From: Minisyncoccota bacterium
GTDB lineage: Bacteria > Patescibacteriota > Minisyncoccia > Minisyncoccales > GWA2-38-27
Assembly: GCA_028717605.1 (NCBI GenBank)
Contig: JAQUNM010000001.1
Location: forward strand, 1-29,377
Direction: 5' to 3'
Length of the DNA: 29,377 nt
In this document: positions 3,001 through 29,377 of the stretch, in pieces
Layout of the letters: every line of letters begins with the position of its first letter
How positions within the stretch are numbered: position 1 is the first letter of the stretch
The notes under the pieces: generated by a model
Databases searched by the model: none
What the model saw: the letters and a program-made list of their open reading frames with translations, nothing else
What the model was told of the DNA's origin: nothing
Position numbers and translations under genes: made by a program

Positions 3001-3567
3001 TTATTCTGTTTCTATTCTTTTAGTATATTCTCTTCTTTCTGTGTTTATTTCTATAATATCTCCCTTCTTTATAAACAAAGGAACATTTATTTTAGCCCCA
3101 GTTTCTAGGGTGATTAGTTTTGTTCCGGCTTGAGACCTATCTCCTTTAACCCCAGGAGGGGCTTCTATTACTTTTAGTTGTAATTTAATAGGAAGATTAA
3201 TATTAACAATTTTATCTTTAAAAATTACTATTTCTACTTCTTGGTTTGGTTTTAAAAAATCTATTTTTTCTTTAACTTGATCGCTAGAAAGAGTAATTCT
3301 TTCTTTATTTTTTTTAACAAAAACAAACTTGTCTCTATGAGAATAAATGAATTGAGCTAAAAATTTTTCTATTTCAGCTTGTTCTAGAACGTCAGAAGAC
3401 TGAAAGGTGTAAGAAAAAATTTCTTCAGTTATTAAGTTTTTAATTTTTGCTCTTAGAACAGAACTTCCTCTTCCTTTAAACATAGGAGAGCATTCTATTA
3501 TCTGATAAGGCTGATTATTTAAAATAATTTTTGAGCCTTTTTCTAAATTAGAATAAGATACTTTCAT
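3001..3567 (-). CDS. efp: Elongation factor P
   Basis: PPGVKGD, LETGAKINVPLFIKKGDIIEINT C-terminal signature; three-domain length. Confidence 0.95.
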   Translation of the reverse strand: MKVSYSNLEKGSKIILNNQPYQIIECSPMFKGRGSSVLRAKIKNLITEEIFSYTFQSSDVLEQAEIEKFLAQFIYSHRDKFVFVKKNKERITLSSDQVKEKIDFLKPNQEVEIVIFKDKIVNINLPIKLQLKVIEAPPGVKGDRSQAGTKLITLETGAKINVPLFIKKGDIIEINTERREYTKRIETE

Positions 3568-7810: not shown

Positions 7811-8170
7811 ATGGAAAACTTAGAACAAAAATTTGGTCAGAATAATAATGAAGATCAAGAGATAAAAGAGGCACAGGAAATAAAAGAAAGGGCTGAAAAA
7901 ATAGAAAAGATAGAAAGAACAGAAAAAGATTATTTAGATAAATATAAAGAATATGAAAAACTTATGGATACTCTTAGAATTAGAAGAAGGGAACTTAATG
8001 AGCTTAATAAAAAACCATCTATTTTTAATAGACGTAAAGCTAAAAAAACCAAAGAAGAAATAGGTATTATTTGTGAACAAATAAATATTTTTACTAATGA
8101 ATTAGAACAAATTTTTAACGAGCTTCCGGAAGAATTAAAAAAGAAATATTTGAGAATAGAAGCAGAGTAA
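7811..8170 (+). CDS. Hypothetical coiled-coil protein
   Basis: E/K-rich heptad-like composition; A-rich leader. Confidence 0.7.
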   Translation: MENLEQKFGQNNNEDQEIKEAQEIKERAEKIEKIERTEKDYLDKYKEYEKLMDTLRIRRRELNELNKKPSIFNRRKAKKTKEEIGIICEQINIFTNELEQIFNELPEELKKKYLRIEAE

Positions 8171-27989: not shown

Positions 27990-29051
27990 ATGAAGGATTA
28001 TTACAAAATATTAGGAATTGATAAAAATGCTTCTTCAGAAGAAATAAAAAAAGCATATAGAAAATTAGCTCATCAATATCATCCTGACAAAAGAACAGGT
28101 GATGAAAATAAATTTAAAGAAATAAACGAAGCATATCAAATCCTTTCAGATAAAGAAAAAAGATCCCAATATGATCAATTCGGATCTACTTTTGATCAAC
28201 CACAGTCAGGTTTCTCTGGCTTTGAAGGCTTTGGACAACAAGGATTTGATTTTGGTGAAGATTTAGGAGATATTTTTGAACAATTTTTTAGCTTTGGTAG
28301 AAAAAGACCCAAAGACACAAGAAAAGGATCAGATATCCAAGTAGACATAGAGCTTTCTTTAGAAAATGTTTTAAAAGATCAAGAAAAAACTTTTGTTATA
28401 AATAAGTTTTCTTCATGTTCTCGGTGTAATGGTTCTGGAGCAGAACCAGGAACTTCTTCTAAAGAATGTTTTTCTTGTCGAGGAACTGGTCGGGTTCAAC
28501 AAATAAAAAGAACATTTTTAGGTACTTTTTCTCAGTGGACCATTTGTCCAGAATGTAATGGTGAGGGTAAAAAACCAGAAAAACCATGCAATGTTTGTAA
28601 GGGTGAAGGAAGAACAAAAAAAGAAGAAAAAATTAATATTTTTATTCCAGCTGGAGTAGACACCGGTCAAACAATAAAAGTAAATGGACAAGGAGAAGCA
28701 GGAAAAAGAGGGGCTAAACCAGGTGATTTATATTGCCGTATATTTATTAAAAAACATAATATTTTTCAAAGAAAGGGAGATGACTTACTAACTACTGTTT
28801 CTGTTTCTTTTCCCCAAGTAGCATTAGGAGAAGAAATAGAGATTACAACCTTAGAAGGGAAAATACTATTATTGAAAATTCCTGCTGGGACAGAATCAGG
28901 TAAAATTTTTAGAATTTCTGGGAAAGGAATTCCTCACTTTTCAAGAGCAGGAAGAGGGGATTTATATATAAAAATTAATGTCAAAATACCTAAAAAATTA
29001 ACTAAAAAACAAAAACAACTATTAGAAGAGTTGAAAAAAGAAGAGTTATAG
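27990..29051 (+). CDS. dnaJ: Chaperone DnaJ (class A)
   Basis: J domain with HPD, G/F-rich region, four CxxCxGxG repeats. Confidence 0.98.
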
Positions 29052-29059: not shown

Positions 29060-29068
29060 CAAATATCT

Positions 29069-29141
29069 GCCCTCGTAGCTCAATTGGTAGAGCTGCTCCC
29101 TTTTAAGGAGAAGGTCGCAGGTTCGAGTCCTGCCGAGGGCA
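29069..29141 (+). tRNA. tRNA-Lys(UUU), CCA not encoded
   Basis: GCCCTCG/CGAGGGC acceptor stem, GCTC/GAGC D stem, loop CT-TTT-AA, GCAGG-TTCGAGT-CCTGC T arm. Confidence 0.95.
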
Positions 29142-29147
29142 TAAATA

Positions 29148-29169
29148 CCAGAATTATTCTGGCTTTTTT
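29148..29169 (+). terminator. Intrinsic terminator after tRNA-Lys
   Basis: CCAGAA-TTA-TTCTGG hairpin followed by CTTTTTT. Confidence 0.6.
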
Positions 29170-29189
29170 ATTTAAATTCTGTTATTATT

Positions 29190-29375
29190 TCACAAGGGCC
29201 TGTGGTATAGTGGTAACACACATCCATGGCATGGATGAGTCCGGGGTTCGACTCCCCGCAGGTCCACCAAATGGGATTTTTGGGGAATTTCAGCCCCGGC
29301 AAACTCCTGATTCAGCTTCAAAATGGCACCTAATCGAGGAGTTCCATAAGTCGAATTATTTTTGTAGAAAATTCC
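29190..29375 (-). CDS. 5'-truncated reading frame; possible C-terminus of a large serine recombinase/integrase, antisense across tRNA-Ala
   Basis: Frame open from the right edge: GIFYKNNSTYGTPRLGAILKLNQEFAGAEIPQKSHLVDLRGVEPRTHPCHGCVLPLYHRPL-TGA(29190). Not in the supplied track because it has no start in the window. Product call rests on recalled resemblance only. Confidence 0.5.
   Translation of the reverse strand, partial: GIFYKNNSTYGTPRLGAILKLNQEFAGAEIPQKSHLVDLRGVEPRTHPCHGCVLPLYHRPL
29196..29269 (+). tRNA. tRNA-Ala(GGC), CCA encoded
   Basis: GGGCCTG/CAGGTCC acceptor with the G3:U70 Ala identity pair, loop AT-GGC-AT (A32-U38 typical of Ala-GGC), TTCGACT T loop, A73-CCA. Confidence 0.96.
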
Positions 29376-29377
29376 CT

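Follow-up and report, generated by a model that had tools for sequence, protein, structure and literature searches.

The last 108 nucleotides of the window, the term used here for the whole stretch of 29,377 nucleotides analysed from a Minisyncoccota bacterium, are the terminal part of a gene encoding a large serine recombinase (LSR), joined to the 3′ end of a tRNA-Ala gene. The results point, with a probability of roughly 85%, to an integrative element of a Patescibacteria-specific clade that was inserted at the 3′ end of tRNA-Ala(GGC) by its own LSR and that has its attachment (att) site inside the LSR gene. In the proposed mechanism the attachment site would lie within the recombinase gene, 27-30 codons ahead of the native stop, and the crossover core would correspond to the 3′ acceptor end of tRNA-Ala (minimally GTCCAC, and AGGTCCACCA here). 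Integration would leave the gene body and core beside the tRNA gene and carry the codons of the native tail to the element's other end, after which the frame would continue antisense through the entire tRNA to a fortuitous TGA. The complete element would lie beyond the end of the contig. The window is the entire contig C1, which terminates inside the recombinase gene, and the features at its right end are as follows.

27990..29051, plus strand: dnaJ, a host synteny anchor (ORF list and synteny).
29068-29142, plus strand: tRNA-Lys(ttt), a host synteny anchor (ARAGORN and synteny).
29196-29269, plus strand: tRNA-Ala(GGC), anticodon (ggc), intact and with an encoded CCA, the host-side arm of the junction (ARAGORN).
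29260..29269, no strand assigned: common core AGGTCCACCA, the putative crossover region (similarity break against free-form contigs).
29270..29377, minus strand: 3′ end of the LSR gene (35 codons plus 2 bases), the P arm and left junction (94.9% DNA identity to metagenome contig L054; phmmer).
29190..29375, minus strand: composite frame of the presumed integrated state, with recombinase codons, the core and 22 tRNA-antisense codons (RGVEPRTHPCHGCVLPLYHRPL), stop TGA at 29190-29192.

From the contig edge, the minus-strand frame at 29190..29375 runs for 61 codons without a stop and spans the whole tRNA-Ala(GGC) gene, and its translation is GIFYKNNSTYGTPRLGAILKLNQEFAGAEIPQKSH/LVDLRGVEPRTHPCHGCVLPLYHRPL followed by the stop. 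The first 35 codons (29270-29375) lie outside tRNA-Ala, the other 26 consist of the exact tRNA antisense and one extra codon, and the stop TGA sits 4 nt past the 5′ end of the tRNA gene. The GC content of the 108-nt tail is 40.7% versus 27.8% window-wide; the source genome (535 kb, 65 contigs) has contigs of 26-34% GC, the window being at 28%. The tail occurs once and has no k-mer overlap with any other contig of the genome. Both the frame, with its stop at 29190, and the rise in GC directly after the CCA had been reported in a preliminary description made from the sequence alone, and ARAGORN and the ORF list gave the same coordinates. That description also warned that such a frame may arise by chance. 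When the sequence was shuffled by mononucleotides, 3.9% of the shuffles kept 61 codons open and 9.9% kept the 35-codon tail open. A plus-strand frame (29084-29377) is likewise open for 98 codons over both tRNA genes and the tail. Since about 4% of shuffles stay open and the 98-codon plus-strand frame exists, the openness of the minus-strand frame is weak evidence; open frames easily arise in the GC-richer stretch at the window end. The warning was justified, and it is homology that decides.

Comparison of the 61-residue peptide with 1.84 billion proteins using phmmer yielded 40 matches with a best E value of 1.3e-11, several of which cover query residues 1-60; the E values of the full-span matches ranged from 1.3e-11 to 3.5e-7. 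One of the matched proteins, the 569-residue P0009, aligns with the query through residues 485-540 and contains Resolvase (E 6e-24) and Zn_ribbon_recom domains. A search of public metagenomes by sequence pattern retrieved contig L054, of which positions 2116-2233 are 94.9% identical in DNA to window positions 29377-29260 over 118 nt. L054 encodes a 540-residue protein with a Resolvase domain (PF00239, E 1.7e-27) and the catalytic motif YTRVSSDEQ, and Zn_ribbon_recom (PF13408) was detected in the relative P0042/L054 protein with 27.9 bits compared to a cut-off of 25.3. When P0042 was used as the query against the source genome, a match was obtained at 29253-29375 (E 2.9e-17). The window fragment aligns with a conserved segment that follows the coiled coil in these recombinases, GIxYxxNxGFGTxxLGxIFxLNQ, in which the stretch YGTPRLG of the fragment falls on the conserved GFGTxxLG strand. 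The full-span phmmer matches and the 94.9% DNA identity to the L054 gene thus identify the 108-nt tail as the last 35 pre-core codons of an LSR gene. The initial assignment as a recombinase C-terminus agrees with the LSR ends of P0009 and L054, and the Resolvase and zinc-ribbon domains by which such an enzyme would be recognized are present in both of these relatives.

The tail could otherwise be read as a chance open frame or as a fragment of an IS3-type transposase (HTH_21), in either case unconnected with site-specific integration. HTH_21 was the sole Pfam hint obtained on the fragment, with E values of 0.07-0.24 that are below the cut-off, and 4% of shuffles contain an open frame this long. 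The full-span matches to LSR C-termini, the 95% DNA identity to an LSR gene and the alignment of YGTPRLG with GFGTxxLG outweigh these points, making this explanation highly improbable; the IS3/HTH_21 assignment in particular was rejected, its best E value of 0.07 being sub-threshold.

The NCBIfam XisF model aligned with P0042 residues 12-353 (E 6e-21) but far under its equivalog cut-off, structures of the SPbeta integrase (9dxh/9dxd) matched P0042 residues 258-437 (E 1.4e-7), and phage serine integrases are approximately 25% identical to the P0042-type recombinase. The Recombinase domain PF07508, which in LSRs sits between the catalytic domain and the zinc ribbon, was not reported in P0042 or P0009 at E ≤ 0.01. 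An AF2 model of the full enzyme, of mediocre quality (mean pLDDT 70.8, pTM 0.40), contained long helices at residues 352-400 and 405-428. A PHROGs search of the fragment gave nothing, a word-indexed protein search with the C-terminal region of P0009 returned only P0009 itself, and a second word-indexed protein search did not recover the exact fragment of sequencing run X4 described below. The DNA of the tail matched the 38 genomes of the family at chance level only.

The position at which the related genes part company locates the putative crossover. The window and L054 are similar as far as 29260 and no further, a position that marks the left edge of AGGTCCACCA, which is the tRNA 3′ acceptor end plus CCA (tRNA-Ala positions about 67-76) and which on the minus strand reads (T)TG GTG GAC CT, encoding L-V-D-L. 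The break in similarity occurs at the same core when the window is compared with the free-form contigs L076 and L043. In the recombinase sense, the window reads CAT TTG GTG GAC CT/G CGG GGA GTC GAA CCC, encoding H L V D L / R G V E P, which is tRNA antisense (RGVEPRTHPC...), whereas L054 reads CAT TTG GTG GAC CT/T TTG CAA ATT AAC TGG, encoding H L V D L / L Q I N W N Y L I K D L Q Q W Q A L, and the frame closes 27 codons on. Past the core, a conserved tail predicted to be helical, LLQINWNYLIKDLQQWQ..., is encoded by L054 together with three other contigs, and the free-form gene ends as ...KSHLVDL-LQINWNYLIKDLQQWQALNDFSVFECNTV and stop. The same or a recognizably related alternative tail follows the core in L054, L076, P0043, L043 and L075, with the consensus xxNWxxhIxxLxxWQ in the free forms. 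A second matched pair consists of P0046 (tRNA form) and P0047 (free form), the peptides of which diverge after ...VLVD at the GTGGAC codons. Since near-identical genes diverge exactly at the core, into tRNA antisense in one case and a native tail in the other, the comparison of these genes places the crossover site inside the recombinase gene, such that integration would exchange the last 27-30 codons.

The claim that the tail of the enzyme depends on the state of integration is borne out to the extent that, in a 95%-identical gene, the identical 10-nt core is followed by another tail, itself conserved (L054, and likewise L076 and P0043). The motif ...VDxxGxEP, named in the preliminary description as an ending of such recombinases, is real and represents the antisense of the acceptor and T arm of tRNA-Ala in a frame set by GTG GAC. 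The statement that the tRNA supplies the tail of the enzyme is accurate as a description of the open reading frame and implies no functional role of the tRNA-derived peptide, which is more plausibly a by-product than a selected peptide.

The sequence GTGGAC is common to the junctions examined except L049 (GTGGTC) and a degenerate attR-like copy in L077 (GCGGAC), and the crossover presumably falls within it. The minimal shared core, GTCCAC, corresponds to tRNA positions 69-74 and includes U70 of the G3:U70 pair and the discriminator A73. The G3:U70 pair and A73 are the alanine identity elements recognized by alanyl-tRNA synthetase, and the invariance of the core probably stems from them. The native tail is predicted as a helix (residues 516-534) with pLDDT values of 60-68 in the mediocre AF2 model. 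Seven diverged copies of the free-form tail showed 207, 142 and 233 pairwise differences at codon positions 1, 2 and 3, respectively, a periodicity that is coding-like but modest; conservation of the tail could derive in part from a DNA-binding half-site of attP.

The association with tRNA-Ala extends across the clade. Among 38 informative junctions, that is, those in which the sequence continues beyond the core, 30 abut antisense tRNA-Ala (ggc, tgc or cgc), all in the V-D (GTG GAC) frame. All nine matches in named species-representative genomes were to metagenome-assembled genomes of Patescibacteria. No relatives were found among the viral contigs of IMG/VR, and for this reason a phage origin is unsupported. 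Core-plus-tail units on the recombinase-sense strand were found at the far end of islands that end in tRNA-Ala, in L068 (317-382), L077 (231-296) and genome G030 (L097:3024-3095), and they appear to stand where the model predicts the other junction.

Several arrangements of related elements were also observed. Two islands without a recombinase (L077:231-3174 and L068:317-4263) have a core-plus-tail unit at one end and, at the other, a 3′ stump of a recombinase gene fused to tRNA-Ala, and L074:118-2000 holds a cargo gene between two diverged units, each composed of a recombinase 3′ fragment, core and tail. These islands may be mini-elements that can be mobilized in trans. At L042:1807-3516 the frame of P0009 is open through two successive antisense tRNA-Ala genes, ggc followed by cgc, and as a result the annotated 569-residue P0009 carries approximately 50 tRNA-derived residues. 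The element type nearest to that of the window (L070:36-2101 and L054:1-705) also encodes a tyrosine integrase of 366 residues (Phage_integrase, E 2e-43) and a winged-helix protein of the HTH_36 type, together with a 65-residue ORF that shares 4 nt with the start of the recombinase gene and is a candidate for a small regulator or a directionality factor.

About 10 of the 30 tRNA-fused relatives retain only a short 3′ stub of the gene (L044, L050-L052, L068, L073, L077, L080 and L081), which raises the question of whether the window ends in such a scar. On that view a decayed recombinase gene would have left its final ~100 nt behind, either as a remnant of attL or where a recombinase-less island mobilized in trans terminates, and the frame would yield no product. 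The stubs in L051, L080 and L081 start near the first codons of the window (GIPYTRNK...), the L077 and L068 islands have an att half at each end but no more of a recombinase than a stump, and stubs make up about one third of the tRNA-fused relatives. The 65-contig genome bin also contains no Resolvase domain, the window ending before the catalytic region. No other L054-like DNA or remainder of an L054-type element was found elsewhere in the bin, and a tblastn search of the bin for the far junction with five free-form tails gave nothing significant. However, for an element of foreign GC content at a contig break one would expect the remainder to be missing from the bin, the fragment is 95% identical to the intact 540-residue gene of L054, and the identical sequence in sequencing run X4 extends at least 226 nt further. 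A scar is therefore considered possible but rather unlikely, and the gene end is interpreted here as part of an element inserted by its own recombinase. Two additional exact copies of the 10-nt core in the genome (C36:3059 and C40:4260) lie within ordinary ORFs and were dismissed as chance matches.

Comparison with relatives of the host revealed both occupied and empty sites. The same-family genome G031 has the order DnaK-DnaJ-tRNA-Lys-orf-tRNA-Ala(ggc) followed by a gene for an LSR of 528 residues that reads antisense into the tRNA and is 58% identical to that of L054. The same DnaK-DnaJ-tRNA-Lys-tRNA-Ala locus in G038, G008 and G030 has neither an LSR gene nor an LSR stub next to the tRNA, so that empty-site relatives, which the preliminary description had named as a point of comparison, do exist. 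The downstream genes at the locus differ in every genome, as expected of an insertion hot spot. Contigs of G036, from the same genus (L012, the end of G036:C58), and of G027 (L015, the end of G027:C17) stop exactly on ...GGTCCAC, which suggests assembly breaks caused by polymorphic insertions after tRNA-Ala.

The other junction in G031 was searched for within 14 kb, and neither a core repeat of at least 9 nt nor the tail motif was found. The G031 island (L094, G031:C8, 5465-11500) has a GC content of about 38-39% versus 31-35% and contains, besides a gene for an N6/N4 DNA methylase, several ORFs of unknown function; the boundary at its far end was not located. In G030 (L097, G030:C10) the syntenic tRNA-Ala(ggc) is apparently unoccupied and a core-plus-tail unit lies ~5 kb downstream (3024-3095 and 8003-8074), with an identical 15 nt (AAAAACGACGAAAAT) ahead of both cores, an arrangement that may represent a decayed island or a duplicated target arm.

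Public sequencing runs were used to examine the host and element parts of the junction separately. The runs containing the tail (from landfill, sludge, sediment and digesters) differ from the runs containing the host dnaJ region, a pattern that speaks for mobility of the element. Landfill runs X1 and X2 contain the dnaJ region without any difference and lack the exact tail, while the tail is present and the host part absent in X4, from another landfill study, in a sludge run and in a sediment run. The X4 unitig starts in the tRNA at 29244, matches the window exactly to 29377 and continues 226 nt further, and dnaJ has zero depth in that run. A 565-nt unitig from X1 matches only from 29260 rightward and has on its opposite side 418 nt of sequence unlike the tRNA. 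L054 shares five of the seven variants listed for this unitig, which on this basis appears to be a relative, either free-form or placed elsewhere, within a sample in which the host is also present. Unique host sequence and the tail are not bridged by any single read or unitig record in the runs, and the link through the 74-nt tRNA rests on the original assembly.

These results bear on whether the contig is an assembly chimera in which the tail, taken from the same element in another Patescibacteria strain or species with an identical 3′ half of tRNA-Ala, was joined to the host through the tRNA. The separation of the exact host (X1 and X2) from the exact tail (X4, with no depth on dnaJ) and the lack of a record bridging the spacer to the tail are compatible with such a join, as is the end of the contig 108 nt past the tRNA, roughly the gain to be expected from one 150-nt read with its anchor in the tRNA. 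That X1 and X2 lack the exact tail is nevertheless weak evidence, as Logan contigs drop low-depth variants, and the orthologous LSR at the same locus and tRNA-Ala(ggc) in G031 and the G036 and G027 contigs broken exactly at the core, as a polymorphic insertion would give, argue against it. A chimera is considered quite improbable and, even if real, would alter the host assignment only and not the nature of the sequence, which remains best explained as the end of an LSR gene at an integration junction.

The P0042-type recombinase resembles known LSRs (SPbeta SprA/YokA, A118/LI, phiC31, Bxb1, XisF and CcrB) in having an N-terminal resolvase catalytic domain (YTRVSSDEQ) and a zinc ribbon, and in being one large enzyme whose gene lies at the element's edge, next to the attachment site. 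The Patescibacteria clade differs in its identity of only about 25% to phage integrases, in its targeting of a tRNA gene, and in the location of its core inside the recombinase frame, with the last 27-30 codons apparently exchanged upon integration. The closest likeness in design is with tyrosine recombinases. [quoted passage not shown] The att-in-gene design is common to Mx8 and the clade, although the Mx8 enzyme is a tyrosine and that of the clade a serine recombinase. For Mx8, the altered protein was shown to change in activity. In the 'suicidal' tyrosine integrases of SSV1-type archaeal elements, att also lies in the integrase gene, which is split by integration into a tRNA gene, and int and att form a compact module (PMC8371274). 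In those elements integration divides the gene into two large parts that are inactive, whereas in the clade only a short C-terminal tail would be exchanged and the recognizable domains stay together; the hosts and enzymes also differ, being archaea with a tyrosine enzyme in the former and bacteria (Patescibacteria) with a serine enzyme in the latter. No description of an att-in-gene design for serine integrases or for Patescibacteria was found in full-text literature that included a large LSR survey preprint and in which subscription journals are thinly covered. The serine-integrase version of the tail exchange is apparently unpublished, the design itself being known from the tyrosine integrases of Mx8 and the archaeal SSV-type elements.

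Serine integrases are major tools of genome engineering, and control of their directionality is an active question. By analogy with IntX of Mx8, the exchange of tails might conceivably act as a switch set by the state of integration, in which the enzyme with the native amphipathic helix (xxNWxxhIxxLxxWQ) would be competent for attP x attB recombination and the tRNA-tailed copy would be altered or silenced, a role that we consider doubtful. If true, it would provide control of directionality without, or on top of, a separate directionality factor, and mini-islands at tRNA-Ala that lack a recombinase could be moved in trans through the same att halves.

The window contributes a 108-nt stub with little material of its own and is a confirmed but fragmentary member of the clade. 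For the annotation of these genomes, recombinase ORFs that 'end' in tRNA genes would be artefacts of integration junctions rather than native proteins, and contig breaks at ...GGTCCAC would mark polymorphic insertions. The mobile elements of Patescibacteria are poorly known, and the clade appears to carry a compact module of recombinase plus site that is aimed at the most invariant part of tRNA-Ala. By rewriting its own C-terminus with each integration, the recombinase of this clade would offer a simple and testable coupling of the form of the enzyme to the state of integration.
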